64,000 nucleotides of DNA, taken from NCBI GenBank assembly GCA_964387845.1, contig CAYLXA010000003.1, positions 64,001 through 128,000 on the forward strand, written 5' to 3'. The translations under genes and the position numbers were made by a program. This document shows positions 9,228 to 29,939 of this stretch, piece after piece. Numbering within the stretch: the first letter of the stretch is position 1; every line of letters starts with the position of its first letter. Under the pieces are notes generated by a model. It was not told where the DNA came from. It saw only the letters and a list, made by a program, of their open reading frames with translations, and searched no databases. The DNA is from an uncultured bacterium (lineage in GTDB: Bacteria > Omnitrophota > Omnitrophia > Omnitrophales > Abzuiibacteriaceae).

Positions 9228-9345
9228 GTGACTTTCCTCCTCGTGTGTTTTCCTCTTATTTGTCGGCGCAGGCAGCTTTAAAGTTTAAATTGATAACACC
9301 GATACATCAACAATCGGAAATTCGCATCTTCGGGAGGATGTGACC

Positions 9346-9822: not shown

Positions 9823-10632
9823 AATAATTTTGTTTTTCTGTGCCAGTTGAAATAGTTTTTTAATTGCCGCCTTGCCCTTCTTTCCCATTTCAACCGTATA
9901 ATCGTTCACATACATGCCGACAAACTTGTCGTTCAAATCCGGTTTTAAGCCGCGGCCGAACTTAATTGCGTAATCGAGTGCGGGTTTTCGGTTTTCAAGC
10001 CCGTGGACAATGCTTTCTTTAAAAATCTTCGATATCTTTTTTACTTTGTCTTTCCCGAGATTTTTCCGGACCACATCAACACCTAAAGGCAGAGGCAATT
10101 TGGTTTTCTTCCACCACCACTCGCCTAAATCGACGATTTTGTAGAGTTTTTTATCTTTATAAGTTAACTGGCCTTCATGAATTACAACGCCGGCATCGAC
10201 TTTGCCCTTCGCGACAAAATCCAAAATCTGGTCAAACGGAACAATCTGCGTTTCCACATCTTTTTTGAACAATTTGAGGACAAGTGCTGCGGTCGTGAGA
10301 ATCCCGGGAATCGCAACTATTTTTCCGGAAAGCTCGGATGGTTTCATGGGTTTTTTAGAAATTATGATGGGCCCGTATTTATCACCGATACTCGCTCCGG
10401 CACGCATAACGGAATAATGATTCGTCAGATAGGCATACGCGTGAACCGAAACGGCTGTGGCTTCAAGCTCGGCTTTGAGCGCGCGCTGATTCAGGGATTC
10501 GATATCTTCCACCACGTGATCAATTTGGAGGCCATGTGTATCGATCTTATCCTTCGCGATTGCGTAAAACATAAACGCATCGTCAGGATCCGGCGAATGG
10601 CCAAAGCGTATCTTGGTTTCAGCAATTTTCAT
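9793..10632 (-). CDS. mqnD: 1,4-dihydroxy-6-naphthoate synthase-like (futalosine pathway, MqnA/MqnD family)
   Basis: HSPDPDDAFMFYA (cf. SPCPNDTF), DIESLN and GDKYGPIII motifs of the VitK2_biosynth family. Confidence 0.6.
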   Translation of the reverse strand: MKIAETKIRFGHSPDPDDAFMFYAIAKDKIDTHGLQIDHVVEDIESLNQRALKAELEATAVSVHAYAYLTNHYSVMRAGASIGDKYGPIIISKKPMKPSELSGKIVAIPGILTTAALVLKLFKKDVETQIVPFDQILDFVAKGKVDAGVVIHEGQLTYKDKKLYKIVDLGEWWWKKTKLPLPLGVDVVRKNLGKDKVKKISKIFKESIVHGLENRKPALDYAIKFGRGLKPDLNDKFVGMYVNDYTVEMGKKGKAAIKKLFQLAQKNKIISGKPKPSFV

Positions 10633-10731: not shown

Positions 10732-13700
10732 TTACGCCGCTTTTCCAAGTACGGCGCGGCTAAAGAGCGTATGCATGAGTGAGCTGATAAATTCCGAGCT
10801 CGGATCGATCACGTCGCCCAACGAACGGAAATTGAACGAATCATTATGAGCGATTAGAAGCTGCGCAGCCTCAACGGCTCCCGGTCGGCCCAAAACTTTT
10901 GGAATATCACGCCGCGTGAGTTTTGAGAATAAATCGTGCTCGCCAATGGCCACAATCCGAGTCGTATCGCCTTTTGCATTGAGTTCATGTTTTAAGCGGT
11001 CGATTAAAATATTGTACGCTTGATCCGCCGAAAGTTCGCGGCCGACACTCAAACGCTCGCGCGTATAAAGCTGCAAGCGCGATCTTTGCCCGCTTTGCTT
11101 GCCAAAAATGTCGGCGTTTGGAAATAACTCTTCAACAGCCCTTTCGGCAACAAATGTGTTATCAAATTCGGAAGCGACAACCGAAAATTCGATTTTTGAA
11201 CCGGGATTTGCACTCATATCCGCCAAAATCGCTTCGCGCAATTCCGAACGGTTCTTCAATTCCTCAAACGAGATTACAATATTCCCCTTCACGTTTGACG
11301 GAATGCTTGCTTGATTCGCTTCACGCCTCAATTCAGACCGGGATTCTTGAGTTTCACCAAAAACCGCCTTAAGTCGATCCAAATATTGTGTCCGGTAAGC
11401 GCCCTCCGGAAAGTCTTCCAACTCGTCGGGATGGCTGCGGGCGGCGTCTGCTTCCTGTTCGACCTCATCGCCAACCCGTTCATCCTCTAAATATTCTTTG
11501 ATCACCTTCGTGGCCGCTTCAAGCTGTGCTTGGGTAATTCCCAATCGTTTAGGTGCTTCCAAATAAATTGCGATCGGTGTTTCATATATTGTGAAAAGCG
11601 TGGTGGCGGTTATCCGGCTTGAAAAATGATTCGCCGGATTATTTTCTTCACCAATCCAATAACGGACACCTGCCTCGATCAAAGGCAGTGTCAAGCCGAG
11701 CAATATTCGGCTTGGGCCTTCATGCAAGCCGGCAGCGTGATTTAAAACTGCGTGTTCAAGATGAAAAGAACTGTTGTCCAAACGGCTTTCAAAATGATCT
11801 TTAAATTCATTCCGGATATGCTCGATCAATGCCTCATCGCTTGTGCGCAATTCAGAGCGGGATTCGTCCTTTCGTACAAGAGCGCTCTTCCAGCCTCTTG
11901 ATTTTTGGCCGTCAGCGCCAACCGCCATCAGCATGTTGCCAAGTTCGTACGTTTGTAAATTGGTCCTGCCAAATACAGCATTTGTTAAAATTTTTACTTG
12001 CACACTTTTATCTTCGATTTCTGAAATTACTTTTAAGATTGGATTAGCATTGGTTAAAGCATCTTTAATGATCCACCTCGCTAAATATTTTGGAAACTTT
12101 AAGAAAAATTCTTCTTGTTCCAGAAAAGTCAAATCAGAAAATTTTTCATCCAAAATTCTGATCAATTCATCCGTTGTTTTGACCTCGCCAAATCTTGGCC
12201 AAGCCGGGAAGTTTTCCTGAATAAATTCTTGTATTTTTAAAACTCTTTGTGCATCGTTAGAAAATTTTTGTCCTTTTGTTGCTTCTGAGATTAACTGATT
12301 TGTCAGAAGGCGTGGATTTTCTATTTGATATAAATTCGAAATTTGAATTCTTTCATCTTTGGATAATTCCGATATTTTCTGCCGAAGACGGCGTTCTAAA
12401 TCCATATCTTTTTCAGGATCAATAAAGGGCAATTCGTAGAATGAGGCGTCTGCTAAATCAGGATGATGACGGGTTAAATAAGTCAGTAAAATATCTTGGA
12501 TGCTTCTGTTTTCCAAAGGTACGTTGCCATCGCCAAATTCCCGCACTAAGAGTTCTTTTTTATTTGAATCACCAGATATTAATAATCTATTCGAGGCATC
12601 AATAAAAACTTCCGGAATAATTCCGGGGAATGCGAGAACAATCTCTCGTCCTTGCCGGAAACTATTCGGCTGAAATTTTTCCTGTGCCCAATCCGGAATA
12701 TCAGTTCTTCCCCAAAGTCCGCCTGCTTCACCCATAAAATCCCGTTTTAATTCTCTTTCTAAAGACTCAAATGAAACACCAGCGCGCAAAAGCCAGCTTA
12801 ATTTGGTCCGCGCTTTCGAGAAAGTCATGTGATAAGGAATATTAATGGCGCCTGATTGCGAAACATTTGAAACAACAGGGATTTTCTTCCTTTTCAAACT
12901 TTGAATAGTAGCCCTGATATATTCGATCTCGGGGTTCTTTGAAAAATCGCCCTGGATAACAAGTCCTGCCCGAACGCCGGCTTGCTCTGCGTGCCGCTCG
13001 ATTCGATTGCCGGCTTGAAAGAGCACCAGCGCAGGCGTTGTTTCATCTATAAGCAAATGCTCAACATAACCAAATTCTTCATTTTTATGAAACTTTGGTT
13101 GTTTTTCTAGATTGGCCAATTTGCTGCTTACTGTTTGTAAGAAATCCATATCGAAACTGATATTTCCCTTGGAATCAACGGCGCCGATTGCTTTTCCATA
13201 ACTAGCAAAAAGACTCCCTTTTGAAGACGAGTCCGTTCTGATCTTCGAAATAAGACTTCCGAGATAGATTTGACTGTCAATGACAACATAGACCAAATTT
13301 GGAATATCTGTACGTTTTGCAACTTCTTCAGCTGCTTTCAAATTTAATATCTTTTCCTTTTCATTAACCGTGGAAGATCCTGTTAAAACAATTCGTGTCG
13401 GTAATGATCCATCAAATTCAAGCGAAAGAACCAGGCCTGTTTCTGCCAAGGTGTCGGTTCCGTGCGTGAGGATAATTCCACCCATTTCTCTTTGAGAAAC
13501 CTTGATCTCTTCGGCTAATGTCGTCTTCCTCGAGATTTCATCTTTGATATGATCAATTATTTTTTCCCATTCTTTCGGGCCAATATTCGTACTATCCGGA
13601 TTTTTATCGAAAACACTTTTGTAAAAAACAGTATTCTTTAAATGCGTTAATAAAACTCTTACCGCATCAACAGTCTTCCGCGCAAATTCGCCGATCATAT

Positions 13701-16700
13701 CAATCGTTCCGCCGGCATTTAAGATTGAAACGCCGGACAATTCTTTCTGAAGTTCTGCAATACTTTGCCCGCTGCGCAATTCGGATCTCACGTTTTCTTC
13801 AACCGGCTCTTCGGCATTCGGCTCATCGAGCTGTTTCAAGACGCGGTTTGTGGTAGCAATCGAATCTTCAAAAACGCCCAGCTCTTCCTTCGCTTTTTTC
13901 AATTCTAATAATTCCCTTGCCTGATCTTCAGGAAGTTCGACAATCCGGTCTTTGATTTCCAAAATCTTTTCAAGTCTGTCCGGACTAACGCCCAGCGCTT
14001 TCCTTAAAAATGCGGAATCTTTTAAATAATCAAAGAGCTTTTCGACCGCTTTGGCCATATCAAAAGGAGGAAGGATTTTGATGTATTGATCAATGTCGGG
14101 TGTTTTGTTTTCCCATGCATCTTTCAAGATCGTCACATTCTGGACTATTTTTTTCTTCGTTCCCTTTCCTCCCTTCACCGGAGCATCCACAATCTTGGGT
14201 GCCAATTCGATGCCGGTTAAACGAGCTATTTCCGGCATCCTGGATTCTTTGTTATAAAGCTCTTTTCTAACCCGGTAAGGCAGCCGCATAACCAGATCTG
14301 CATGAATACGAGCTCTTAATAGTGCTTTATACTCAGGGCTTCCGAATTCAATCGGTTTTTCGGGTTCAGGCTCTTGCGTGACAGAGGAATTTTCGAATGA
14401 ATCGACTAATGGGGTTTTTCCTATGATCGCCCGGGGTATCTCCAAACGCCTATTCGTTACCGCTGCCTGGCGAGCGTTTTTAGGTAAAAATTTATCGGCG
14501 AAATGCGGCGGATACGGATCCGCATTAAGTTCTAGAACCGTTTCGCGCCTAATCCCATAAATTAAATCTGAAGTCACATTCAATATTCTCGCCAACTTGC
14601 CCACTAATCTAGTAACTTCGGTGAATTTGACTTGTTTACTCCCGGAAAGCACTGCGTGAACATGCCCATAGGTTTCTTGTATTTGATTAAAAAGCTCGCT
14701 GGTAGTGATATGAGTAATGCCTCTTGCTTCAACAATGATTCTAATTCTGTCCCAATATGTCAAACTTGGATCAAACAAAGATTCGATAATGGCTGGCGTA
14801 AGAGCATAAATCGTCCATTGATCAACCGGAGATGCTCTTTCAATTTCCGAGACAAATGGTGGTTGCTGTTCTGGTTGGGGCGCTTCGGAAGCAGTTTCTG
14901 GAGTACTATCAATGTTTTTTAGCATTTCCGACAATCTAAGCGGCAACATTTCTTCTGCAGTTTCTTCTATCGTACCCGTCAGGGGTTGTTCTTCTGTTTC
15001 TGAGGGTTTAGCTTCAGTCAAAACTTCTTGTTTTACCAACTCAAGTTCTTGCTCGGTAGTCAAACCCAATCGTATGGAAAACTGTTCAAAGAGCATGATT
15101 TCTGGCCCTAAGATCCTTCTGATTTCTTTACCCTCTTCGCTTTCAGGAGTGTGGAGCAATTGTGCAAACTCCAAAGTATCTACTAACACTTCCCGGCTGG
15201 CAATACGCGGCCCCCCAAATGCGGGGTTGGTCGGCGGTACAAACAATAAACCTCGGTCAATCATATGCTGCAATGCTTCACCCATACGGGCTCCGCCGAT
15301 CGTGGTACCGAGCCGCGGATGCCAAACGACGTCCTGCGATTGGCCTTCCGATTTCGTATAAATTTCTTCCCAAAGAATCAATGCAATCAAGAGAGGCGCC
15401 ATTATCCTGCCTTTGTTCGGCCCGCTTTTGTATTTGAAAAGAACGTCGGGATCCTTCAGTAAAGTATCGGGAAGCAGATATTCTTTCACTGAAAATTTCA
15501 AATATTCTTTCAATGCGGCTTGATCCACGGAAAGATTTTCAAACGGTTGGTCTGGATTTCTGTTTAAGATTGCTTCTTCAATTTTTTTGCGAACCTCCGC
15601 ACCCATTTCATGATCAACTTCGAGCTGATTTTTGCTGTTAAACAATGATTCAAAATCCAACCCCACATGATTCGTGTATTCAGACATAGCTTCTACTTGC
15701 CATGGCTCTAGCTTTTCTGAAAGCCATTCGTGCACTTGCCCTACTCGAATGGTAACGTCCCGGTATTTTTCATCAGAATAAATTTGGTCAACTAATTTGC
15801 TAATTTCTTGAGGGTCTTCTTCTTTGATTGTCTTGAAAAATAAGTTTTCAAGATCGGCATCTCCCGTCAAATGATGAAGCAGCATATACCGAAGAATTGT
15901 TTTTTGCGTATTGCCTGCAAACCGCATTCCTCTCACAGTATCTGAATCCCTCATCTTAGTAATCGCTTTCATGGAGGAGCGCCGGATATTACCATGCATG
16001 CGCTCGACTGCCTGGCGATTAAGTCCGAAAATCAAATAAAGATCGATGATCATAAGCTGGGTTTCAACTGGAAGAGCTCCGCTTTGCTCGAAGCTTCTCT
16101 CAACAGCTTTATCAATCAATCCAATTTGACCTTCAATCAACAAATGTGTACGCCGGCTCGAATCCATCATCGATTTCAAAAGCTTCAATCGGTGGCCTTC
16201 GGCTAACGCTAAATCACGAAATTCGATCTGAAGCGTTGTGCTGCGATTCATTTCTATCTGGCGTGAAAAAACTTTGTCCAGTTTTTCAAACGCTTTTTCC
16301 AAGTCTATCTTTGCCTGGCCGATCAACTCTTCCGCAAGCTCCGGTTCGACTTGATCCACCAAGTGATCGGCTTGGTTTAGTTTTGCTTTTGCCTGGCCTA
16401 AATAATATTTAAACCATTGCTTATAAACTTGGGTTGAAATGTCTTCATAGATAGAACGTAAACGCCAATAAGCTTCTCCCCATTTGCTGGATGTTTGGCT
16501 CTCTTTAAATGAATCATCGTCCAAGAATGTTTTTACGGTTACGGCAACCTTCATCATGGTTTCGTAAAATAAATTAATTCTTGCTTGTTGAATGGAAATA
16601 TCCGATGCGCCGGATAGTGACTTGAAGTCTTTGTGCAAACGCCCGTAAACAGGAGATGTTCTGCTTTCAAAAAATATAGACTCTTTATTTTTAATATCCA

Positions 16701-19700
16701 AAAGAGAAAGCAAAACATCCAACTTTTTTAAGACGGTGTTGAGATGTCTGTTTTGAAGAATGGGCGGGATTCTGGCCGTTAAAGCATGGGCGCCTTCCAA
16801 CCATGAATAAAACGCATTCCGCTCATCAGAAGTTCCCATTAAATCGATAAATTCATCTAATTCCTTTTTTAACTTTACCAAGCTATCAAAGTGGCGAACC
16901 AGGTCGGAATTCTTCAAATCCGAAAGAAATGCATCTAGAAAAGCAGATGATTGAGACGCTATTTTCAACTGCTCTTCAAGTTTCGCCCGGCTTTCGGCAG
17001 TATTTTCGGAGGCCAATGCAGTCAAGGCAGTTTGGCGTAAAGCAGAAATGGATTCTACCTCGATAAACTTTTTGGCCAACTCGTCAATTTTCTGGATTCT
17101 CTGAATAATTTTTTCACTGCGGGTTTTCCGAACAAAAGAAACGGTTTCATTTTCATTTGATTTAACAATCAAATTTAAAATTAACGGCAGGGCTTCCTTT
17201 CTGAAGAATTTGCCCACGATTTTCCGGATCTCATCCAGTTTTTCTGACCGTCCTTTTTCCGGATTATTGGCAAGTTGATTAATGCTCAAAATTCCTTCGT
17301 CAACTTCAAGAAGCCACGAAAATACAGTTTCTATTTCACTTGCGGTGCCTAGATCAGAAATAAATTTTTCAAACCGGCTTTGGATTTCTCTCAGTTTGTG
17401 ATAAGCATCCCTGTTCTCACTTTCGGTAAGACCGTCAAATATTTTTTTCAGAATTTCAAAAGATTTTCTTGCTTCCGATCCAATATTTTTAAGATCTTCA
17501 AACCCTGCAAACGCCGTTTCGATGTCGAATTCCCCGTCACTTGAAGCAGGAATTAATTTGGATAAAACAAATGAGTCTAGATCGGAAAACCATGCGTCTG
17601 AAAAAAATGCTGCATATTGGGGCGCTGCGGCCGCATAAGTAGTTTTGCTGCGTGTGATTTGAGACAGTAATAAATTCCCGCGGCTATTCGCTGATTTCCA
17701 GCTGTTCATATTCATGCTTTCAAGCGAACGCAATTCTGATTTCTTGCTTTCAGCCGCATTCAACGTTTCGGCAATGAACGTTTTCATTACGCGATAGACA
17801 TATTCGGTTTGCTCTTGGGTAGGTTCGCTATTAAGAAAACGATCATAGAATTTGGCGGGATCCGAACCGCGCGGGTAAGCCTGTGAATAAGACAAAAGCC
17901 AGGCGCCAATAATAGATTGTCTAAACGTTGGAAGAGGAAGTTTTTTTAATTGTACGCCGCGGAGGCCGATGTTGACGAAAATAGCCGGCACATTTGCATC
18001 AAATTCTTTCCAACGGCGAAGGCGATGAATCGGCGCAAACCGGTCAAGCTCGCCCTTCCAAGGAATATAATCAATCTTCAAATCCTGCCCGTCGACCGTA
18101 ATTTTTTTCAAATCTTTGAGCAATTCCATAGCTTTAGAAGTGGCAATAATGCGGATCGGAGCGCGCGTTTCGCGAGGGCGTCTTTCCATAAACGTGATAT
18201 GCCAATCCATCATAAACGGAATATCGGGAAATTTTTGATGCAGGACCTGCATGAATTTTTCTCCGATTGGCGCCGGAATAGATTCAAAATTAGGCTGTGA
18301 ATCCGGTTTAATCTCGGCTATCAATTCTTCCGAAAATGCAGCCAACATTTTTTTGAATAACTTGTCCCGCTCTCCATGAAATTCGAGACGTTTTTGAAAA
18401 TCTGCGGCGCCTGCCGACATTTTTCGTTTCGTGCTCAAGCGCCGCTTTTTTCTTTCAGAAGGCCAATCTTTTTCTGCGTCATTTGTGATACGCTTTTGAA
18501 CAATATGCAGCAAGCGACTATTGATTTCATTACCGATTAAACCTTCCCGATCGGAAGCTTTGCTGAAATGAAAGTCGATCAAATTTAAACTGCTCTGGTC
18601 ATCACTTGTTTCAATTGCACGATCAATATCTTCTATCACTTTTTCCAATGTTTCAACAAACCACCGTTCTTTATCTTTGGAATATCGCTTTGACGCGGCC
18701 CCGTGCTCAAAAATTCTTCTCCCTTCTCTTCTATAAGCTTCGAGCATCCGCATAACACCCCGGTAAATCAAGTTGGTCTCGCCGACCGGCGTAAAAGACG
18801 ATCTCCACCTGCCGATTGCAGCATACCCGCCAAATTCTTGTTTCAAATCACGAATCATTGCTGCCGTGCGCTCCAAAGGATAATCACGATCAGTCAAGAT
18901 AAGCGGTGCTGTTCCTTCGGAGGATTTGACCGATTCCAGCAATTGAATTGCAGAACCAATGCTTTCCGGGAACAAATCTTCCGGAGCAAGCAGGCCCAGC
19001 TCAAACATGATTTGATTAAAAATGGTGCGCTGAGGGCCTCTCAGGCCTTTTATCCATGGATCTTTTTCGTAAATGGGCCGGATGCTTTTTGCGGTGATAT
19101 TGCCGTCTTCATCGCGATATTGATTGAATATATCGTTTTCGATTAAATATTCGATCGTGTTGTTTAAATAATCATACTGACGTAGCGTATCGGTCCATAA
19201 CAATAGAAGAAAAACAAGTTCGGGAGCCGGTTTTTGAAAGGGCATGAGCTGCTCGATTAATTCGTCGGATTCAAGAACTTTTCGGTAATAATCGACTAAA
19301 TTTTCAAATTTGGGATCTTTTATTTTATATTCTCCGCGATCAAACTTGCGAATAACTCTCCTAAGCACTATTCGAACGTCGTGCTTGAGCAGGGCTTCAT
19401 ACGCATACAACACACGTGATATTTTGTTGTCATAATCCCACGACGGATTTTTAGCAAAATCACTCTCGATCGCGATAAGGGTCCTAGCAATCAAACTTGC
19501 TGCATACATATTAGACCCCGGCAGCGGGTTGCCATACATGAGATCGGTTACATTTGGATGGACAATGTTTCCTGCGCGATCTGTCTCATCATTGGAAACA
19601 ACTTCATTGGGGAACACCTGATCCATAATAGCTTCACGGCTTCGAGTCCTCCGGTATTCTTCCCGTGCCCATTCTAAACGTTTTTTAAGTTGCCACCCTT

Positions 19701-22700
19701 TCGACCCTATTCCCAAAACAGACAACAACATCGCAATTGCATAATCCCGATAACCGACGTTTCCGACCATTTCAAACCGCAGCCTTGGATTGATTGCACG
19801 ATTCAGCCGGCGTACTACTTTTCGAAGAGAATGTTCATTTGCGTATTGAAACGCCGGAATTTTAAGTGCGATCGTGCTTGGAAGGCCCGCCTTCTCTTTA
19901 ATAGCACGCTCGTAATGATTTTCTTGCTCGTTTTCCGCTAATCCTGATAAAGCATGAAATATTTTCCTTTCGGCAGAATCCTCAGACTCCAAATAAGCAT
20001 GCCAAGCACGAGATTCAAATCGCCCCCACAAGTTTCCAAGTCCATGAAATTGGCTTTGAAATGCAAAAACCTGGCTTGCGCTCGCCATTTTATTTAGATG
20101 ATAACTGGCTTCGACAAGTTGACGATAAATATCGGGCAGGCCTTTTGAAGGCGTCATTTTGTACCGTTCTAGAGTTTCAAATGCGGCGTTCTTATGATAA
20201 TCAAAATAGAATTCGTGAATGCTTATGATTAACTCTCTGGTTTTTTCTTTAAAAACATCAATGGCGTGCGATTTCCCAAGCCCCATTGCGAGATCATAAA
20301 ACGATTGGAAGTACCGCGATAACCCCTCTGAGACTGCAAACCGGAGTCTCGCGTCGGTCTTGGATTTTTCGAGCAACGTATTTGTTATATCGCGAACAGG
20401 TTCAAAGAACACTTCCAACTTTGATTCGACGTTACTCTTTTTATTTCTTTTTGTACTGCCCTTTTTGATGTTGGCTGTCGCCAAACTAATTAAAAATTCT
20501 TGTGCGGTCTTTTGAGAAAAAGAATTGATGATGTGTTCCCACAAAAATATTGGTACTTTGATTTTAGATTTTGCACTCTGCACTAAATCTAAAAACATCC
20601 TTTCGGTCATTCTTTTATGATTGAAATTTTTTACGGGCAATACACGCACGCCGGGAATCGACTGAATTAAGAAATAGCTTTCTCTTTGGTCCTTATCTCC
20701 GCTTGTTTCTAACTTGCGGCTCGTAATGAGTTTGACTCTCGCAATAATTTTTAAGTCTGTTTGTTCTCCTCCGCGTGCAATCAAGAAACCATCTTCACGG
20801 CTTGGATTTAGTTTTATATCAAATTTTAAATCGTTTTGATTCTTTTCGCCGATGATCTGTTGGATTTTGTCCAAATCTTTCTGCCGATGCCATGCGGATC
20901 TGATTCCGACAAGAGAACCGCCCACCGATTCAACTCGCACTCTTGATATTTGTTTAGGGACAGATTCAACACGAATATGCATTGATTCGGTATTGCCATC
21001 CTCGTCAAAAACAACTGTAAATGTGCGACCGTGGCCAACTGAAACTAACTGCCGACCCACAAATCTTTTGGTACCAATCCGCTTCGCTTGAGAGATCAAT
21101 GCATCATCCGATCTGAGTTCAGACTTTTTTGTGGCCTGTCTTATTTCAAAATACTGCTGATAAAGTTCCTGAAAACTCGGCGTTTCCTGGATTTCAAGTT
21201 CGATTTCTCTAGCCATGTCCACTGCAGTGTCATTCAGAATATTTTCGTATGCACCAGCATCATAAGCTTTCTGTGAATCCTTACCGATTTCGTCCAGCCA
21301 TTTCCTCTCTGCCGGAATCCAGTCTTTATAATCATAAAAAATACTTTCGACATCCTCATAGGCCGTGAAGCGGATTAATTGTTTAAGAATAGCTAAAACC
21401 GCAGGGCTTACCGCAACGCTAATTGGAACATTGGCGTATTTACCTTTCATGTAGATTAAAAACAGCATGAACCGCCGCCAGCCAGCCATTTCGCCGCAGA
21501 TACTGACTTCCAACCCTGCCGCGCTCGCATGCTCAATGATTGTTTCGATCTTTTCAAGAAATGTGGAAAGCAATTCTGTGTACAATCTTCCGCCATATTC
21601 ACGGTCCCGGCCGAATGTTTGTTGCAATAAATCATTGGTGCCGATAGAAATAAAATCGACGTATTTCTTCTGTGCGATCACCGGAAGATTTTCAATGGCT
21701 TTGTTGGTTTCGATCATAATTCCGAACGGAATTTTGATCCGGAAGCGATTAAGATCGTGACGAAATTTTTCTAACTCCTGATCAAAGATAGTCCGGACAA
21801 ATATTACGTCATCCTCAGTTTGAACCATCGGTACAAATACTTTGACCGCAGATTCTCTTCCGGTTTCTCCTTCGGCGTGAAAATGCTCTGCAGCCATAAT
21901 GCTCGCGCGAATTGCCGCTCGAATTTGAGCTCTCAAGATCGGTTCGCCTTCCGTAGGATCCCTGTAAAGATCGAACCCGATTTTTGTATTCGTTTCTGAA
22001 ATGGCTGAAACAGGCTTGTCCAGCTGACGGTCTAACGTTCTTACCGCAAATGCGCCACGTAAGATAATCCTGCCCTGAGATAATATTTGAGTAAGATCGT
22101 CTTCATATTCTTTTATATTTGCTTCCCAGGATTCGTGGCGGTAGAAATGCGTAGGGAAATTGACTTCGGTTCGATAGAGCCGCACACCATCCGTATCTGC
22201 GGAAAGCTCTTGAATATGTTCAAGCGCATCCGCACTTCCGCTAACTTCCATCAACAGTGAAGCAACGCTGTCTTTCTTTGCAAACACAGGTTCTAGTGCG
22301 AGGGTTTTTGCCAATTGCAAATACGCTTCTTCCTTGACGATTTTCTGTTCATATTCGGCAGCATCTTTTTGTGAAGGATTGGCATGCAGCATTCCGTTTT
22401 CCCCGTCCGCATAAATGATTTGCCCTGACTTGATATCTGCAAACTTACCTAGTTTGGCCTTGAGCGCGGTAAGAACTAAGATCCCGTAATTAGCGCCGAC
22501 AATAACCCAATGTTCGGTGGGAGATCCAAACTCGGCTACAACCGCACCCAAATTTGGGTAAGCTTTTTTTAGACTTAAGAGAGTCGGCGCATTCATCGCT
22601 CCTGCCAAATACGGCTGTTCTTTTGAGACTTTTAAAATAACCACCAAATGATCAACTTTATCCGTCGTAAATTGCTGATCCGACACCAATTGCCGCGCCA

Positions 22701-25700
22701 TTTTTTCGTTTAGAATCAAAACTGCGTCTTTTAAAAGAACTAAAATATTTAGCAGCGTTTTCTCCTGAAGATCGGATGTGTCTTCAGAACTCATCTTGGT
22801 GCCGATATCCAAAATCAACTTTTGATAAGCATATTGGAGCGCAACATCAGGATACACATTTTTTGTATTGATTAACCAGCTGGTTTCTTCTTGAAATCGA
22901 TCAAGAAGCTCTTGAAATGAATACTTATCCGGCATGTTGTCGACAGGCGCTTGATCAACTAATTGGTCAGCCGCTGATTGAAATGCGCTTGCTATTTGAT
23001 CGTTGTATTCTTTGATTTTCTCTTGATAGAGTTCCTCGGACATTCCTTCCATTTTAAAAGACTCGCCATAGCTCAAAAAACTCATCATCCGGTAGAGCGT
23101 GGAAAGGATTTCCCTATTTCGAGCCTTGATCTGTTTTTCTTCATCCGTGCCCTCGGTTCCCTTGAGAGATTCGATGGCATTATGGATATCTTTAACAATT
23201 CTAGGAATTGGCTGGCCGGCTTTTTCAAGCTGTGTATAAGCATTGGGGTGCGCATACAACTTAAACGCATCGAAATATGAGATTTTTTTGTCCTTCAAAG
23301 ATTCCATCACTAATTTTATTGAATCGGTGTTATATTTAAAAAATTGCCATGTGATTTCTAATGCTTTTGCATCACGCAGACGCCCTTTTTGCTTTAGATC
23401 CCGAATTCTAATTTGAAAATCGAAATTAAAAATATCTAGAATCGCTTTAAAATGTTGCACATCACGTTCGGCAGCTTCAGGGCTAAGAATGGCAGGCTGT
23501 TTAAATTTGCTGCTAAATTTTTCCAAACTCTCTCCTAGCGCTCTGCTCGACCACAAATAGTAAATCTGAAAACCAACGCTATTCACTTTTGATTTAATTT
23601 CTTCTTCAAGAAGATGATCCGCTCTTTTCCCTTCGCTTTCTATTTTTTCCAGAACAGAATCTTTCAATTCGTCTAAAACTTGCAGTAAATTTTTGTTCGA
23701 TTGGTCTTCTTCCAAAATCATCCTGTCTATCTTTTCTGAAAATTTTACCTTTTCGATTCTTATCTTTTCTTGAACATCTGGTTCTTCATCCAAATTCGAT
23801 CTCAACGAATAAGCAGCTGTAAAAAAGTCGTCTGCCTGGAAAAGCATCGTGGTGCCTCGAAATACACGCCGGGCCTGATTTTTATTGCCCTGCATCAGAA
23901 CGGTTCGAAGTTCTGATCTTTTTTCCGATTCGCCTTCGGCATCACTTGTTTTGCTTTTGGATTTTTTCTCTTCGATCATTTCTTCAATGAGATCCAGCAG
24001 ATCTGTTAGTTGAGGGGGCAAAACTCCTTCGATTGCGTCCATGCTCAGCCCTGTATTCGCAATCACTCTTGCGATTATTTCGAGAGCGCTGTTTCCTGTA
24101 GAAACCGGATTTGCATTTATAATTGCCGCTATTTCCTCGTCATTTACTGATTCTTCTTTCGGGTCAAAATAAGAAGCGATTCCGGATTGCGCAGCAGGTT
24201 TTTCGGATTTGTTTTCTGCTGCTTGAGGTTGGGTTTGCGGCTCTGCCGGCTGTGCTGATTTGGCTTTTTCAATGACGAGTTGAAAAAAAGCGTCTCTCTG
24301 GTTTTGCTTTATCGATTTGAATTGATCATTTATAAACTTAGCGAAGGTCGATCCTGCTCTTAAGGGAAATTTATTCACGCTCGGATTCCCTTGTTTATAT
24401 TCGCTTGCCAATGCGCCACTCTTGTTAGCGTCTGTGATAATTGTCCGCTCAATTTCTGTTAGGTTGCCTTCCTTCCCCTCGGCAAGTTTCACAACGCCGG
24501 AAAAAAATGCTTCCACGTTTGCCTGCTGCGTCATATCTGCCGGAACTCCCGCCGCCCAATCGATCAATTTTTGGATTTGCGAATTGACAGCCCGCAATTC
24601 AGAACGATCGTTCTTCTCAGATTGTTGAGAAGGTTGTATAGAAACTGCATACGAGGCCAATTTCGAATCATCAAAATATGCCCTATCAATAAACTTTTCA
24701 AAAGTGGCTTGCCAACCGTCAGGGTTGTAGTAATACTCGGGCAACGATTTTCCTGATTTTGCTTGCACTTCGGATGCAAACCTGAGCAAAGCTTGTTGGA
24801 TAGGAACAAGAAACCGGTTATCAAAATTCTCCGCCGCTGTCCCCGGATTATTTTTGTTGATCAACGCACGCGTATATCCCAATTGCAGCGTCATTAGTTT
24901 CAAAATGTATCTTGATTTTTTCCAGTTCTTATCATTTGCGGCATCACGAAATCTCGATGAATCATAATGAAGGCGCGTTAATGTTGCCGCAAGTGATTCC
25001 GGATATTGATCCCTGGAGACATAGCGGACTTTAAGCCAATCAGATGCAACATCATCTAAAAATACCGAAACAACTCTGTGGGGAGTTTGTTCAATAACAA
25101 CCGACTCTGGATCCTTGAAACCAACCACCCCATTCTCATAAGCAAGATGGCCGACTTCGTGATACACATGATAATCGCTTACCCATTCAAATAACCGTGC
25201 CCTGTCTTCCTTATTTCCAATCTCACCGTGGTGGATAATTTGATGCTGGAGCATTGCCATTCTGAGTGAAATTCGGAGTCTGCGATAAGTTTCGTCATAA
25301 ATTAACGAAAATCCTGTATTGTCAGCCATAGATTCCGAATCTTTCATTTCAGCCGAAAAATTGATAGAGGGTGTCTCTAAAAATTTCTTCAACTCTGCCG
25401 GTAACTTTTCATAACTCTCAGAGGTTCGGCTTATCATCAAAAACGAATCCAAAATCTCTTCCATACTTAAATTGAGCTTCTTGAGTTCGCGATAAATCAT
25501 GATTAGCATAGAAAAAATATTTTGGCTTAATTTGTCAGGAAATTTACTTGTTGAAGATGGGATATAAAGGAATGATGATTGACCGCCTCGATAGGCCGAA
25601 ATAATAACATCAATTGGCCTTGCAAAAAGCCATCTTGAAAAGTAAATAAGCATCACTTGTGTAAGTTTTTTGATTTGAGACAGGTTGGGAAATTCTGGTT

Positions 25701-27243
25701 GTAAACGCAATTCCGATCTGTGTGAAATTGGATCTGCAGAATTAAAATATTCCTGCGGATTAAAATCCGAATTAAAAACTTGAAGCGGATTTGAGATGGC
25801 GGAAGATTTTAGAAACTCTTCGAACTTGGGTTTTAGTTTCTCAAAAGTTGGTGTTTCACCGTTCATGCGTTCGTAATAGCGGTCGTAATCCGTTTCCGGA
25901 GAAACTTGCGGCGAAATCAAAACAAACGGAATGTTTTCCTTTCGGAATTTTTCGGTTAGGTCTTCGGCATGAAAACCGCCGGTGACGAGGATAATGCCGG
26001 AGCCCGGCGGTAAAGGGTAAGCGTTAGGCGTTAAGTCTGACTTATCGCTTAACGCGTAACGCTTAACGCTATTTAAGAATGCTTCATCGCGTCTTTTGCT
26101 GGTGGTATAAAACTGTTCAGCAACATTGAGTTTTTTCGGATCTAGTTTTCCTTTGAGAAATTTTGTAATTTCTTTTTTGTGCTGTTGGTAAAATAGAAAG
26201 TCTTCCGGAGTTGCCTGCAGCGAAACGAGCGCTTTAACGGATTTTAAATATTCGCCTTCTTCATGAAGCCCTTCCTCACCTTTTCCGGAAAACAAACGCT
26301 CACGGACACGGTCTTTGAAAAGACTAATTTCACGAAACAAATTTACAGCACCGATTTCGCGGCTGATTCTTTCAAATTCTTTCTTCTCATCTATTTTTTC
26401 GCCGGCTTTCACACCCGTTAAACTGCGCTCCAATAGAACAAGCGATATTAATTTCTCAATCTCATACAAATCCGAGCGCTTGACGCCTTCGTTGCGCCCA
26501 ATATTCGCTAAATGAGAGATCAGCGAAATTAATTCGCCGCGCTGTTCGTATAAGCCCGTTTTTGTTTCGAATTCGAGCAAGCGCTTGTTGTACGTTTTCT
26601 CTTTCGCTTCCTGATTTTCTTTAAAAAGAAAATGGACGGCGGGCAAAAGTTCTTTTTGCACTTCAAGTGCTTTTAAAAATTCCTTCCGGTTTGAATCATA
26701 AAGTGCCGCATCTTCGGCCCCGATTAACTCATAGGACTTGGGGTTTAAAACGGCTTCTGCTTCAATGCCGGTTAAAATAACCTGCTCAAGCCAAAATCGG
26801 GTGGCGAGTTCTTTTACTTTTTGGTTAGGATAATTACGAAATCTGAAAAGATCTGCAGTGCCGGATGCGCCCTCGGCTAAAATCGTGCGGACGCCGAATT
26901 TTTCCGATATAAGCCTTGCGATCTTCTGAATATTCTGCTGAGCGCCCAGGTTTGCGTGAGCATCTTGGATGTAAAAAACTATAGGGGCAAGGGTCATGGG
27001 TCCAGGGTCAAGGTTCGTTCCTTGACCCTTGCTACTTGCTACTTGACCCTTCGGAATAAAGACTTCCGAGACACGCCCCAGAGCTTCTGGAATTAAATTT
27101 CCAAAATCCTGTTGATTAGATATGGGTCTTTGGTAATCAAGAGGCGCTGCATGAGAGATGTCTGCCCAGATAAACGCCACGATTAGGACAAACGCAATAA
27201 TGCGGAGAGCCGGAGAATATTTTTTGTTTTGGGGGAAAAACAA
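10732..27243 (-). CDS. giant (5503 aa) membrane-anchored multidomain protein of unknown function
   Basis: Uninterrupted 16.5-kb ORF. TTG start preceded by SD gaggtg and an in-frame TGA just upstream. N-terminal hydrophobic anchor. Recognisable modules: PEP-utilizing phosphohistidine (GSPTEHWVIVGANYG) and TIM barrel (RTLD...ISIGTNDLLQQTFGRDREYGG...VSICGEMAG), asparaginase signature GGIILTHGTDTL, HEVGH, and tentative Tiki/ChaN-like N- and C-terminal domains. Confidence 0.8.
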   Translation of the reverse strand: MFFPQNKKYSPALRIIAFVLIVAFIWADISHAAPLDYQRPISNQQDFGNLIPEALGRVSEVFIPKGQVASSKGQGTNLDPGPMTLAPIVFYIQDAHANLGAQQNIQKIARLISEKFGVRTILAEGASGTADLFRFRNYPNQKVKELATRFWLEQVILTGIEAEAVLNPKSYELIGAEDAALYDSNRKEFLKALEVQKELLPAVHFLFKENQEAKEKTYNKRLLEFETKTGLYEQRGELISLISHLANIGRNEGVKRSDLYEIEKLISLVLLERSLTGVKAGEKIDEKKEFERISREIGAVNLFREISLFKDRVRERLFSGKGEEGLHEEGEYLKSVKALVSLQATPEDFLFYQQHKKEITKFLKGKLDPKKLNVAEQFYTTSKRRDEAFLNSVKRYALSDKSDLTPNAYPLPPGSGIILVTGGFHAEDLTEKFRKENIPFVLISPQVSPETDYDRYYERMNGETPTFEKLKPKFEEFLKSSAISNPLQVFNSDFNPQEYFNSADPISHRSELRLQPEFPNLSQIKKLTQVMLIYFSRWLFARPIDVIISAYRGGQSSFLYIPSSTSKFPDKLSQNIFSMLIMIYRELKKLNLSMEEILDSFLMISRTSESYEKLPAELKKFLETPSINFSAEMKDSESMADNTGFSLIYDETYRRLRISLRMAMLQHQIIHHGEIGNKEDRARLFEWVSDYHVYHEVGHLAYENGVVGFKDPESVVIEQTPHRVVSVFLDDVASDWLKVRYVSRDQYPESLAATLTRLHYDSSRFRDAANDKNWKKSRYILKLMTLQLGYTRALINKNNPGTAAENFDNRFLVPIQQALLRFASEVQAKSGKSLPEYYYNPDGWQATFEKFIDRAYFDDSKLASYAVSIQPSQQSEKNDRSELRAVNSQIQKLIDWAAGVPADMTQQANVEAFFSGVVKLAEGKEGNLTEIERTIITDANKSGALASEYKQGNPSVNKFPLRAGSTFAKFINDQFKSIKQNQRDAFFQLVIEKAKSAQPAEPQTQPQAAENKSEKPAAQSGIASYFDPKEESVNDEEIAAIINANPVSTGNSALEIIARVIANTGLSMDAIEGVLPPQLTDLLDLIEEMIEEKKSKSKTSDAEGESEKRSELRTVLMQGNKNQARRVFRGTTMLFQADDFFTAAYSLRSNLDEEPDVQEKIRIEKVKFSEKIDRMILEEDQSNKNLLQVLDELKDSVLEKIESEGKRADHLLEEEIKSKVNSVGFQIYYLWSSRALGESLEKFSSKFKQPAILSPEAAERDVQHFKAILDIFNFDFQIRIRDLKQKGRLRDAKALEITWQFFKYNTDSIKLVMESLKDKKISYFDAFKLYAHPNAYTQLEKAGQPIPRIVKDIHNAIESLKGTEGTDEEKQIKARNREILSTLYRMMSFLSYGESFKMEGMSEELYQEKIKEYNDQIASAFQSAADQLVDQAPVDNMPDKYSFQELLDRFQEETSWLINTKNVYPDVALQYAYQKLILDIGTKMSSEDTSDLQEKTLLNILVLLKDAVLILNEKMARQLVSDQQFTTDKVDHLVVILKVSKEQPYLAGAMNAPTLLSLKKAYPNLGAVVAEFGSPTEHWVIVGANYGILVLTALKAKLGKFADIKSGQIIYADGENGMLHANPSQKDAAEYEQKIVKEEAYLQLAKTLALEPVFAKKDSVASLLMEVSGSADALEHIQELSADTDGVRLYRTEVNFPTHFYRHESWEANIKEYEDDLTQILSQGRIILRGAFAVRTLDRQLDKPVSAISETNTKIGFDLYRDPTEGEPILRAQIRAAIRASIMAAEHFHAEGETGRESAVKVFVPMVQTEDDVIFVRTIFDQELEKFRHDLNRFRIKIPFGIMIETNKAIENLPVIAQKKYVDFISIGTNDLLQQTFGRDREYGGRLYTELLSTFLEKIETIIEHASAAGLEVSICGEMAGWRRFMLFLIYMKGKYANVPISVAVSPAVLAILKQLIRFTAYEDVESIFYDYKDWIPAERKWLDEIGKDSQKAYDAGAYENILNDTAVDMAREIELEIQETPSFQELYQQYFEIRQATKKSELRSDDALISQAKRIGTKRFVGRQLVSVGHGRTFTVVFDEDGNTESMHIRVESVPKQISRVRVESVGGSLVGIRSAWHRQKDLDKIQQIIGEKNQNDLKFDIKLNPSREDGFLIARGGEQTDLKIIARVKLITSRKLETSGDKDQRESYFLIQSIPGVRVLPVKNFNHKRMTERMFLDLVQSAKSKIKVPIFLWEHIINSFSQKTAQEFLISLATANIKKGSTKRNKKSNVESKLEVFFEPVRDITNTLLEKSKTDARLRFAVSEGLSRYFQSFYDLAMGLGKSHAIDVFKEKTRELIISIHEFYFDYHKNAAFETLERYKMTPSKGLPDIYRQLVEASYHLNKMASASQVFAFQSQFHGLGNLWGRFESRAWHAYLESEDSAERKIFHALSGLAENEQENHYERAIKEKAGLPSTIALKIPAFQYANEHSLRKVVRRLNRAINPRLRFEMVGNVGYRDYAIAMLLSVLGIGSKGWQLKKRLEWAREEYRRTRSREAIMDQVFPNEVVSNDETDRAGNIVHPNVTDLMYGNPLPGSNMYAASLIARTLIAIESDFAKNPSWDYDNKISRVLYAYEALLKHDVRIVLRRVIRKFDRGEYKIKDPKFENLVDYYRKVLESDELIEQLMPFQKPAPELVFLLLLWTDTLRQYDYLNNTIEYLIENDIFNQYRDEDGNITAKSIRPIYEKDPWIKGLRGPQRTIFNQIMFELGLLAPEDLFPESIGSAIQLLESVKSSEGTAPLILTDRDYPLERTAAMIRDLKQEFGGYAAIGRWRSSFTPVGETNLIYRGVMRMLEAYRREGRRIFEHGAASKRYSKDKERWFVETLEKVIEDIDRAIETSDDQSSLNLIDFHFSKASDREGLIGNEINSRLLHIVQKRITNDAEKDWPSERKKRRLSTKRKMSAGAADFQKRLEFHGERDKLFKKMLAAFSEELIAEIKPDSQPNFESIPAPIGEKFMQVLHQKFPDIPFMMDWHITFMERRPRETRAPIRIIATSKAMELLKDLKKITVDGQDLKIDYIPWKGELDRFAPIHRLRRWKEFDANVPAIFVNIGLRGVQLKKLPLPTFRQSIIGAWLLSYSQAYPRGSDPAKFYDRFLNSEPTQEQTEYVYRVMKTFIAETLNAAESKKSELRSLESMNMNSWKSANSRGNLLLSQITRSKTTYAAAAPQYAAFFSDAWFSDLDSFVLSKLIPASSDGEFDIETAFAGFEDLKNIGSEARKSFEILKKIFDGLTESENRDAYHKLREIQSRFEKFISDLGTASEIETVFSWLLEVDEGILSINQLANNPEKGRSEKLDEIRKIVGKFFRKEALPLILNLIVKSNENETVSFVRKTRSEKIIQRIQKIDELAKKFIEVESISALRQTALTALASENTAESRAKLEEQLKIASQSSAFLDAFLSDLKNSDLVRHFDSLVKLKKELDEFIDLMGTSDERNAFYSWLEGAHALTARIPPILQNRHLNTVLKKLDVLLSLLDIKNKESIFFESRTSPVYGRLHKDFKSLSGASDISIQQARINLFYETMMKVAVTVKTFLDDDSFKESQTSSKWGEAYWRLRSIYEDISTQVYKQWFKYYLGQAKAKLNQADHLVDQVEPELAEELIGQAKIDLEKAFEKLDKVFSRQIEMNRSTTLQIEFRDLALAEGHRLKLLKSMMDSSRRTHLLIEGQIGLIDKAVERSFEQSGALPVETQLMIIDLYLIFGLNRQAVERMHGNIRRSSMKAITKMRDSDTVRGMRFAGNTQKTILRYMLLHHLTGDADLENLFFKTIKEEDPQEISKLVDQIYSDEKYRDVTIRVGQVHEWLSEKLEPWQVEAMSEYTNHVGLDFESLFNSKNQLEVDHEMGAEVRKKIEEAILNRNPDQPFENLSVDQAALKEYLKFSVKEYLLPDTLLKDPDVLFKYKSGPNKGRIMAPLLIALILWEEIYTKSEGQSQDVVWHPRLGTTIGGARMGEALQHMIDRGLLFVPPTNPAFGGPRIASREVLVDTLEFAQLLHTPESEEGKEIRRILGPEIMLFEQFSIRLGLTTEQELELVKQEVLTEAKPSETEEQPLTGTIEETAEEMLPLRLSEMLKNIDSTPETASEAPQPEQQPPFVSEIERASPVDQWTIYALTPAIIESLFDPSLTYWDRIRIIVEARGITHITTSELFNQIQETYGHVHAVLSGSKQVKFTEVTRLVGKLARILNVTSDLIYGIRRETVLELNADPYPPHFADKFLPKNARQAAVTNRRLEIPRAIIGKTPLVDSFENSSVTQEPEPEKPIEFGSPEYKALLRARIHADLVMRLPYRVRKELYNKESRMPEIARLTGIELAPKIVDAPVKGGKGTKKKIVQNVTILKDAWENKTPDIDQYIKILPPFDMAKAVEKLFDYLKDSAFLRKALGVSPDRLEKILEIKDRIVELPEDQARELLELKKAKEELGVFEDSIATTNRVLKQLDEPNAEEPVEENVRSELRSGQSIAELQKELSGVSILNAGGTIDMIGEFARKTVDAVRVLLTHLKNTVFYKSVFDKNPDSTNIGPKEWEKIIDHIKDEISRKTTLAEEIKVSQREMGGIILTHGTDTLAETGLVLSLEFDGSLPTRIVLTGSSTVNEKEKILNLKAAEEVAKRTDIPNLVYVVIDSQIYLGSLISKIRTDSSSKGSLFASYGKAIGAVDSKGNISFDMDFLQTVSSKLANLEKQPKFHKNEEFGYVEHLLIDETTPALVLFQAGNRIERHAEQAGVRAGLVIQGDFSKNPEIEYIRATIQSLKRKKIPVVSNVSQSGAINIPYHMTFSKARTKLSWLLRAGVSFESLERELKRDFMGEAGGLWGRTDIPDWAQEKFQPNSFRQGREIVLAFPGIIPEVFIDASNRLLISGDSNKKELLVREFGDGNVPLENRSIQDILLTYLTRHHPDLADASFYELPFIDPEKDMDLERRLRQKISELSKDERIQISNLYQIENPRLLTNQLISEATKGQKFSNDAQRVLKIQEFIQENFPAWPRFGEVKTTDELIRILDEKFSDLTFLEQEEFFLKFPKYLARWIIKDALTNANPILKVISEIEDKSVQVKILTNAVFGRTNLQTYELGNMLMAVGADGQKSRGWKSALVRKDESRSELRTSDEALIEHIRNEFKDHFESRLDNSSFHLEHAVLNHAAGLHEGPSRILLGLTLPLIEAGVRYWIGEENNPANHFSSRITATTLFTIYETPIAIYLEAPKRLGITQAQLEAATKVIKEYLEDERVGDEVEQEADAARSHPDELEDFPEGAYRTQYLDRLKAVFGETQESRSELRREANQASIPSNVKGNIVISFEELKNRSELREAILADMSANPGSKIEFSVVASEFDNTFVAERAVEELFPNADIFGKQSGQRSRLQLYTRERLSVGRELSADQAYNILIDRLKHELNAKGDTTRIVAIGEHDLFSKLTRRDIPKVLGRPGAVEAAQLLIAHNDSFNFRSLGDVIDPSSEFISSLMHTLFSRAVLGKAA

Positions 27244-27252
27244 CCGCGCACC

Positions 27253-27313
27253 TCAAGATAAATTTAATAACCACAACTGCTAGTGGTTATTAGTACCAAA
27301 GTTTATCTTAAAG
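27253..27313. promoter_or_regulatory. nested palindrome in the giant-gene upstream / GH1 downstream region
   Basis: taataaccac-aactgcta-gtggttatta hairpin flanked by aagataaa/tttatctt arms; candidate terminator and/or operator. Confidence 0.3.
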
Positions 27314-29938: not shown

Positions 29939-29939
29939 A

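Follow-up and report, generated by a model that had tools for sequence, protein, structure and literature searches.

How a single bacterial gene could come to encode a chain of apparently unrelated proteins, and what becomes of that chain, is the question raised by a 64-kb stretch of DNA (hereafter the window) from an uncultured bacterium of the Omnitrophota (contig CAYLXA010000003.1, positions 64,001 to 128,000). The minus strand of the window carries a giant open reading frame (ORF) of 5503 residues plus a stop codon (10732–27243, TTG start), the product of which has the same sequence as the public protein P0045. Coordinates given here are positions in the window, while domain positions are residues of the 5503-residue protein. 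The protein is composed of a predicted export signal, a head domain of the TIKI type, a long series of cargo modules and a C-terminal tail, and it is punctuated by nine copies of the pentapeptide [RK]SELR and contains a single cysteine. We hold this description of the architecture and motif with high confidence. We give an even chance to the reading that the chain is an exported polyprotein and is cut, perhaps by its own head, at sites of the form R-[SA]-E-[LVMI]-R. Taken separately, a role of the motif as a processing site is put at equally balanced odds, and the suggestion that the head is the protease is a tentative one that may well be wrong. The nine motifs and the single cysteine are features absent from the account given in the original prediction for this locus, which described a giant mosaic multi-enzyme protein. 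The ORF and the phosphoenolpyruvate (PEP)-utilizing, asparaginase and Tiki/ChaN elements of that picture are retained below, while a zincin and a second C-terminal module are not.

A Recurring Pentapeptide in the Giant Protein

The motif [RK]SELR occurs at residues 509, 880, 1109, 2040, 3168, 4486, 5129, 5302 and 5332, with seven copies reading RSELR and two reading KSELR. Across the six frames of the window SELR is found nine times, always within the giant ORF, where about 0.1–0.2 occurrences are expected from composition. Motif 1 (RSELR, residues 509–513; 25705–25719, minus strand, as are all features of the giant gene given below) lies at the junction of head and cargo and is orthologous to KSELR 506 in the related protein L082 and to RSELR 488 in L002. 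It is followed by motif 2 (RSELR, residues 880–884; 24592–24606), motif 3 (RSELR, residues 1109–1113; 23905–23919; orthologous to RSELR 1040 in L082), motif 4 (KSELR, residues 2040–2044; 21112–21126; orthologous to KSELR 2001 in L082) and motif 5 (KSELR, residues 3168–3172; 17728–17742; orthologous to RSELR 3231 in L082). Motif 6 (RSELR, residues 4486–4490; 13774–13788) precedes the start of an asparaginase fold by 18 residues. The remaining copies are motif 7 (RSELR, residues 5129–5133; 11845–11859), motif 8 (RSELR, residues 5302–5306; 11326–11340), which is aligned with RSEFR 2581 in L002, and motif 9 (RSELR, residues 5332–5336; 11236–11250). Together the nine motifs set off ten segments, namely the head and segments of 366, 224, 926, 1123, 1313, 638, 168, 25 and 167 residues, and the 25-residue peptide (residues 5307–5331; 11251–11325) is flanked by motifs 8 and 9.

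The conservation of the motif stands out from that of its surroundings. Four motifs align exactly between the giant protein and L082, with 18/20 identity (90%) inside the motifs and 38/200 identity (19%), with many indels, in the flanks of 25 residues on each side. The nine copies use the Arg codons AGA, CGT, CGC and CGG and the Ser codons TCG, TCT, TCA and TCC. Because these codons vary while the amino acids stay the same, selection on the motif at the level of the peptide can be regarded as certain.

The Motif across Relatives

The motif was compared across 105 non-redundant head-bearing ORFs in fetched loci, 29 of which are motif-rich and 76 motif-poor. The pattern R.E.R is found 155 times in the 29 motif-rich ORFs, compared with 27.6 expected, while the motif-poor relatives contain five motifs in 131,650 residues and about 140 distant family members (about 350,000 residues) contain about five. 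In the related Omnitrophota proteins the motif takes the general form R-[SA]-E-[LVMI]-R and is present in P0001 (5 copies), L004 (6–7), L005/L087 (10), L006 (6), L084 (12–13), L120 (7), L156 (8–10), L098 (7) and L077 (6). Each lineage prefers its own variant: RAEVR in L084 (10), L120 (7) and L098, RSEVR in L156 (6), RSEMR in L077 (4), RAELR in L087 (6) and RTELR in L006. Such lineage-wide switching of the variant at all sites is the pattern that would be expected under co-evolution with one reader. Directly behind the final Arg, 44% of sites have Ser, Thr or Ala, and the position that follows is acidic at 34%; the flanks are otherwise unconserved.

The motif is placed at the edges of recognizable modules. 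The first motif always lies directly behind the head. In L084, a REC domain begins three residues after RAEVR, a 2-hydroxyacid dehydrogenase exactly fills the interval between two motifs, and sigma-70 regions 3 and 4, helix-turn-helix and methyltransferase domains occupy other intervals. In L006, a TauE transporter (TauE/SafE; residues 2493–2797; about seven transmembrane segments) is flanked by RTELR and RPELR, and in L002 an HPr domain (residues 884–954) lies between RSELR 840 and HSELR 1050. Whole polytopic membrane modules flanked by the motif are seen in L006, L004, L005 and L091. As the cargo mixes soluble and membrane modules, the topology of these proteins cannot be uniform. The median distance between motifs is 316 residues, which is about the size of an ordinary bacterial protein, and a minority of the intervals measure 16–45 residues (L005, L003, P0001, L084 and the giant protein). 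These short intervals could be spacer peptides or released small peptides.

The Head Domain and Its Family

The head (residues 34–508; 25720–27144) has the fold of the TIKI/ChaN/TraB/EreA superfamily with a long helical insert. Its parallel β-sheet α/β core is the one common to ChaN, Ere, RRSP and TraB. The residues D94-A-H96, E124, R385 and TGGFH425 (H425) are invariant or nearly so among 11 sequences, and the spacing from His to Glu (H96 to E124) is +28, as in RRSP and Bcr135 (PMC6254334). The catalytic 2His/2Glu set of the superfamily is found in the head, with Asp in place of the first Glu. This fold and residue set bear out the N-terminal Tiki/TraB/ChaN/erythromycin-esterase-like domain that the original prediction had proposed tentatively.

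The likeness to the TIKI superfamily (Tiki1/2, TraB/PrgY, ChaN, erythromycin esterases, RRSP and HopBA1) thus consists of the α/β core and the His-Glu (+28)...His set. Additionally, Tiki, ChaN and PrgY are extracytoplasmic, which resembles the location predicted for the giant protein. The head differs from the superfamily in its first acidic residue, in its helical insert of about 220 residues and in always being N-terminal to a long variable body. It also differs in being matched by no Pfam or NCBIfam model: the curated models, including TraB, Cofac_haem_bdg and Erythro_esterase, gave no head match at E values up to 0.1, and the distant relative P0012 alone has a precomputed PF04187 match.

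A profile search of 1.84 billion proteins with the head recovered 10,108 cluster representatives at E ≤ 1e-3 and 7,081 at E ≤ 1e-30. In these proteins of 0.6–6.7 thousand residues the head is always N-terminal, and the family is built of a signal peptide, the head, hypervariable cargo and a conserved C-terminal cap. On the strength of these matches, the head defines a family that comprises over 10,000 sequence clusters and has so far gone unannotated. The named sources are Omnitrophota and some Elusimicrobiota, with several paralogs per genome. The Elusimicrobiota metagenome-assembled genome F1F2.bin.33, for example, has six or more head-bearing loci (among them L052, L057, L060, L065 and L072), and several metagenome-assembled genomes of Omnitrophota are also multi-copy. 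The bodies have nearly nothing in common between lineages, and the head is the sole part present in all motif-bearing proteins.

Export Signal and Cysteine Content

The N-terminus (residues 1–33; 27145–27243) has the features of a Sec-type signal peptide or signal anchor, with a K/R-rich n-region, a hydrophobic core and an ISHA–AP c-region. A hydrophobicity scan locates the hydrophobic stretch at residues 9–35 and an AlphaFold2 model places a helix at residues 11–28, in agreement with the N-terminal hydrophobic anchor noted in the original prediction. Hydrophobicity scans revealed no further segments of transmembrane grade beyond the N-terminus in the giant protein or in L082. The N-termini of the head family all resemble Sec signal peptides.

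The giant protein contains one cysteine in 5503 residues, while about 61 are expected from 30 other ORFs of the window (P about 3e-25). Outside the giant gene, cysteine averages 1.1% in the window. The sole cysteine, Cys1916 (21496–21498), aligns with the cysteine of the CGE(M/L)AG motif of enzyme I, which we take to be Cys502 of the Escherichia coli enzyme, a residue that is presumably catalytic in PEP enzymes. The exclusion of cysteine extends to the relatives, as the median cysteine content is 0.0% in the motif-rich relatives and 0.16% in the remainder of the head family. The near-total exclusion of cysteine and the signal peptide together argue for an extracytoplasmic fate of the giant protein.

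Cargo Modules

Two enzyme families can be recognized in the cargo. Module 4 (residues 1114–2039) contains a unit resembling enzyme I of the phosphotransferase system (PTS) (residues 1551–1968; 21340–22593), in which a mobile His domain is combined with a TIM barrel that binds PEP. The barrel is matched by PF02896 (PEP-utilizers_C) with an E value of 5.6e-37, and alignment to solved enzyme I structures indicates that RTLD, IMIE, GTNDL, DR and CGEMAG are retained. The match of the mobile phospho-His domain to PF00391 is weak (E 0.0025, 17.8 bits compared with a cut-off of 23.1 bits); His1578 lines up with the phospho-His of enzyme I, and the signature around it is divergent. The best NCBIfam model is PTS enzyme I (133.8 bits compared with a cut-off of 341.7), which is matched from position 179 of 565 onward. 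In comparison with PTS enzyme I, the barrel, the mobile His domain and the active-site Cys are kept, while the HPr-binding N-terminal domain is absent and an unannotated N-terminal extension of 440 residues precedes the unit. PTS-type parts recur as cargo, since L002 carries HPr and the window carries this enzyme-I-like unit (21340–22593), which lacks an HPr-binding domain.

The second recognizable unit is an L-asparaginase N-terminal domain (residues 4505–4673; 13225–13731), matched by PF00710 with an E value of 7e-20. It keeps GGTIDM, HGTDT and SKIR, and its Thr, Thr-Asp and Lys motifs align with those of asparaginases. The C-terminal asparaginase domain PF17763 gives a weak match (16.9 bits compared with a cut-off of 34.6), and the asparaginase model TIGR00519 scores 60.5 bits compared with a cut-off of 260.5. 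The unit thus keeps the catalytic motifs of L-asparaginase and scores far below the equivalog cut-off. Because both units score far below the cut-offs of their families, they appear to be divergent relatives and not orthologs of the housekeeping enzymes. In contrast to free-standing enzyme I and asparaginase, they are set in an almost cysteine-free chain that is predicted to be exported and may be a polyprotein.

The remainder of the cargo is less readily assigned. The sequence HEVGH (residues 695–699; 25147–25161) lies within module 2 (residues 514–879). Chance alone would give 0.15 copies of HExxH, no Pfam or NCBIfam profile matches the surrounding region, the region is not conserved in the ortholog L082, and a single-sequence AlphaFold2 model of it has a predicted local distance difference test score of 40 and is unusable. 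An uncharacterized module (residues 2308–3164; 17752–20322) is conserved in L082 (about 31% identity) and L002 (27%). A homology search with the two large unannotated modules (residues 2041–4486) returned no matches; orthologs were recovered through the head alone.

The domain content described in the original prediction can be compared with these results. The PEP-utilizing unit placed near residues 1600–2000 is confirmed by the barrel match, the mobile domain being weakly matched, and the asparaginase-type domain near residue 4500 holds for its N-terminal half, with a weak match in the C-terminal half. The HEVGH string near residue 690 is present, at residue 695, while the zincin assignment attached to it lacks support. 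A second, GEHD/HND-containing module at the C-terminus, considered here as a Tiki-like repeat of the head, was rejected, as the tail gives no head-like signal even at E values up to 1000.

The C-Terminal Cap

The tail (residues 5275–5503; 10735–11421), which ends in ...SRAVLGKAA, is common to L002 (41% identity). Proteins of the head family share a C-terminal feature, in that 122 of 157 (P0001–P0157) end in [SA][LAV]-COOH, with SL in 63, AL in 31 and AA in 10. Ahead of this terminus lies a conserved element of about 40 residues with the pattern ..L(R/K)I(R/K)P(I/V)(D/N)(W/Y/F)..I..(W/Y)..(A/S)Q(E/D)AV..(S/A)L (10735–10860 in the window). The tail of the giant protein represents a divergent copy of this family-wide cap. 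A jackhmmer search with the tail matched L002 alone, and a BLAST comparison of the last 171 residues with the tail of P0001 was not significant. The cap could be a sorting signal, a ligand of a PDZ domain or tail-specific protease, or a head-binding element.

The Reading Frame and Its Locus

The giant ORF occupies a quarter of the window as a single frame that is unbroken over 16.5 kb, with no internal stop codon. It begins with TTG, 5 nt downstream of the Shine-Dalgarno-like sequence GAGGTG (27249–27254). Both the uninterrupted ORF and the TTG start with a good Shine-Dalgarno sequence had been described in the original prediction, and all sequence strings quoted there were located in the protein. 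The GC content of the gene is 0.40–0.43, compared with about 0.46–0.48 in the surrounding genes.

That ordinary genes were joined here by a sequencing or assembly error, or that the ORF is non-coding, was raised by its unusual length and lower GC content, the sole points found in favor of an artefact. A public copy of the 5503-residue protein is 100% identical (P0045, in NCBI and Logan, on a 228-kb contig), and the ortholog L082, on a 525-kb metagenome contig, continues in one frame over at least 3836 residues at 31–59% identity. Because of this identical protein and the ortholog in one frame, a frameshift or assembly artefact is a very unlikely origin for the giant ORF. Furthermore, 16.5 kb pass without a stop codon, the positional orthologs have the same architecture and the two enzyme modules keep their catalytic residues, such that an artefactual or non-coding ORF can practically be dismissed.

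L082 is a genuine ortholog: its upstream genes are syntenic with the window and 63–92% identical. Between the two proteins the head is 59% identical and the body 31% identical over 2836 residues. The genes flanking the giant gene (9340–10632 and 27392–34965) encode GH1, PlsC-like, two REC-only, α/β-hydrolase, MqnA-like, PilZ and Xaa-Pro peptidase proteins, and they are syntenic and 40–92% identical in related genomes (L082, L002 and L001). At this conserved locus (GH1 ... gene ... MqnA-PilZ-XaaPro), four species have head proteins of 5503, at least 3836, 2784 and 1837 residues with differing cargo, including enzyme-I-like and asparaginase-like units in the window, HPr and pseudouridine synthase in L002, and a glycogen-phosphorylase/GT1 module in P0001. 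The comparison indicates a hypervariable gene in a stable neighborhood, the cargo of which evolves much faster than its neighbors. Such hypervariable, fast-evolving cargo would fit a role on the cell surface or within host or prey cells, a picture that agrees with the episymbiotic or predatory lifestyle suggested for Omnitrophota.

No tRNA genes or Rfam features were found in the 64-kb window. Two adjoining ORFs at 5266–7070 resemble split N- and C-terminal halves of a transketolase, as judged by a by-eye reading of the translation.

Processing of the Chain and Its Alternatives

The proposed mechanism begins with export of the chain through Sec. A dedicated endopeptidase would then recognize R-[SA]-E-[LVMI]-R and cleave on the C-terminal side of its final Arg (P1 Arg, P3 Glu, small P1′), which would free the modules as separate proteins in the manner of a viral polyprotein or a MARTX toxin. 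The best candidate for this endopeptidase would be the TIKI-type head, working on its own chain or on another copy, because it is the sole constant part and its fold includes the sequence-specific endopeptidases Tiki and RRSP. Once freed, the cargo would work either on the cell surface or inside the cells of a host or prey. In its most complete form, the proposal is that of a self-processing cellular polyprotein, in which an Omnitrophota clade would make an operon's worth of unrelated proteins (enzymes, regulators and transporters) as one exported, cysteine-free chain that is cut by its own TIKI head, with cassettes turning over at a fixed locus as effectors on or in a host or prey and with the nucleotide form of the site also constrained. 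We consider this full combination possible, though on balance unlikely.

Several points weigh against the proposal. Processing is deduced from sequence. While over 10,000 clusters contain the head, the motif is confined to one clade, and the head is therefore not definable by the motif. Elsewhere in the head family, k-mer enrichment across proteins and a search for repeated k-mers within proteins revealed no equivalent recurring motif. Head residues specific to motif-rich proteins (e.g., E233 and E343) were considered as a reader signature and are not used, being confounded with phylogeny. With respect to location, topology was assessed by simple hydrophobicity scales, some relatives have transmembrane modules that would flip the topology, and part of the cargo has no obvious extracytoplasmic role and is at odds with a straightforward function in the periplasm (PEP-dependent phosphotransferase, HPr, sigma-70 regions, REC and pseudouridine synthase). 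Either such cytoplasmic-type cargo works after delivery into another cell, or the inferred topology is wrong. Delivery into another cell would fit the fast evolution of the cargo and the episymbiotic lifestyle that has been proposed for Omnitrophota (PMC10066038).

The codons of the motif pose a further difficulty. In an analysis of the nine motifs of the giant gene and 107 further sites in 19 related loci, codon 4 takes the form NTG in 69 of the 99 motif copies that have Leu or Val there, compared with a same-gene baseline of 32% (P about 1e-14), and another 11 sites have ATG at this position. A pure peptide cleavage site does not predict this bias, and a function at the nucleotide level (a cassette junction, a translational pause or other) may exist alongside the peptide signal. 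The form of codon 4 follows lineage, with TTG at 7 of 9 sites in the giant gene, CTG in L087, GTG in L084 and L120, and ATG in L077. The Ser at position 2 of the motif is encoded by TCN at 58 of 63 sites, while the next Ser after the motif is mostly AGY, and the last Arg favors CGG. The context of neighboring codons does not account for the bias. These strong, motif-specific synonymous-codon biases are what one would look for if the primary signal lay at the nucleotide level, with about 15 nt of the form CGC-KCN-GAR-NTG-CGG serving as an in-frame cassette junction or recombination core, or as an RNA signal (a translational pause where modules meet, an internal NTG start, or a GAGGTG resembling an anti-Shine-Dalgarno sequence), and with the peptide partly a by-product. 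Consistent with such a signal, the 15-mer CGC GCS GAG GTG CGG is almost invariant in L084 and L120, the nucleotide motif is restricted to these ORFs and always in frame, and positional orthologs differ in module content, the breakpoints falling on or close to motifs. In contrast, the nucleotides vary across lineages and within the giant gene while the amino acids stay constant, GAGGTG is limited to the RAEVR lineages (the giant gene has GAATTG), no Shine-Dalgarno sequence lies at the proper distance from NTG, and no recombinase was seen adjoining the giant gene. An internal start or split gene at the motif was rejected as well, as no ORF begins at a motif among 2807 ORF fragments. A primarily nucleotide-level signal, whether as a junction or in one of its RNA forms, is considered improbable.

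Two further explanations accept the pentapeptide as a peptide signal. If the chain remained uncleaved, it could form a giant scaffold, that is, a membrane-tethered multi-enzyme array in which the pentapeptide is a docking or structural linker motif that binds the head, the cap or a partner. Giant multi-enzyme proteins of Omnitrophota have been discussed as intact membrane-associated arrays, the motif lies in polar linkers, which are the usual place of docking motifs, the conserved head and C-terminal cap could interact, and the support for processing is an argument from sequence. Docking leaves unexplained, however, the motifs around peptides of 16–45 residues, the motif three residues ahead of a native-like response-regulator N-terminus and the bracketing of whole polytopic transporters, and an Arg at the last position followed by a small residue resembles the subsite pattern of a protease; a scaffold seems rather unlikely. 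Alternatively, the motifs may be processing sites that are read by an unlinked protease (a periplasmic or host enzyme of trypsin-like, kexin-like or metacaspase-type Arg specificity), with the head serving as an esterase, a heme-binding domain or an anchor. The head family extends far beyond the motif, some members of the TIKI superfamily (ChaN and the erythromycin esterases) are not proteases, and several other protease clans typically cut at a P1 Arg, all of which suits an unlinked enzyme. Such an enzyme is less easily reconciled with the first motif always lying right behind the head, and no linked protease gene was found, either in the window or at the syntenic loci, nor any protease module that the motif-bearing bodies have in common. 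We view an unlinked protease as plausible while thinking it more probably wrong than right.

Comparison with Known Systems

The exported polyprotein proposed here has its nearest counterparts within the same phylum. Giant genes of Omnitrophota are known, and their cleavage points were stated to be unknown (West-Roberts et al. 2023, bioRxiv 10.1101/2023.11.21.568195). More recently, multi-enzyme metabolic cluster giants of Omnitrophota were described that reach at least 10 kilo-amino acids (kAA), nearly all with a signal peptide and/or transmembrane segments (Nielsen & Lui 2026, bioRxiv 10.64898/2026.06.07.730766). Like the giant protein, these are poorly conserved chains that tile unrelated cytoplasmic-type enzymes (starch synthase, GT1, REC and methyltransferase) and carry a signal peptide and/or transmembrane segments, and cleavage is suspected. 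The giant protein, at 5.5 kAA and with two enzyme families, unannotated sequence and a signal peptide, appears to be a smaller example of the same type, below the length threshold of that catalogue, although neither its motif nor its head appears to have been described in the 2026 preprint. Text searches of the two giant-protein preprints for Tiki/ChaN/TraB, asparaginase, PEP-utilizing domains and polyproteins gave nothing relevant; cysteine content was not among the terms. A literature search on the strings RSELR, RAEVR, RAELR and RSEVR found just an unrelated catalytic motif of PL7 alginate lyases and neither of the two preprints, and a search for papers tying Omnitrophota to polyproteins found none.

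Among characterized systems, MARTX toxins are giant proteins (3.5–5.3 thousand residues) with strain-variable effector modules that are freed by cleavage of linkers, and one of their effectors, RRSP, has the same TIKI fold as the head. The giant protein and its relatives have variable modules and a recurring linker motif, and their processing is a proposal. The giant protein differs in having no RtxA repeats (no Pfam matches) and no cysteine protease domain (one Cys), an N-terminal Sec-like signal in place of a type I secretion system, an R-x-E-φ-R pentapeptide in place of Leu-X, and a TIKI domain as the constant head instead of as cargo. Viral polyproteins (flavivirus and picornavirus) likewise encode many unrelated proteins in one ORF, with short spacers and a short recurring site that varies by lineage together with the protease. 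In contrast, the gene described here is a cellular chromosomal gene in a syntenic context, its cargo is metabolic and regulatory, and its protease is a candidate only.

Significance

Giant proteins are characteristic of the Omnitrophota, as of other ultra-small symbionts, and Seymour, in 2023, reportedly dealt with Omnitrophota giant genes as well. The lack of known cleavage points blocks the analysis of giant proteins, as stated in the main study (West-Roberts et al.). The motif described here offers the first concrete candidate cleavage points for the giant proteins of Omnitrophota, predicting exact product boundaries for proteomics and natural cut points for structure prediction. Because the motif is found where modules meet, persists at orthologous sites and changes with lineage, the question of processing is testable, and a named candidate protease with named catalytic residues makes it directly so. 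A second outcome is the recognition of a family, so far without annotation, that comprises over 10,000 clusters and is built of a signal peptide, a TIKI head, a variable body and a C-terminal cap. If the processing is real, these proteins would represent a rare case of polyprotein-style gene expression in a cellular organism.

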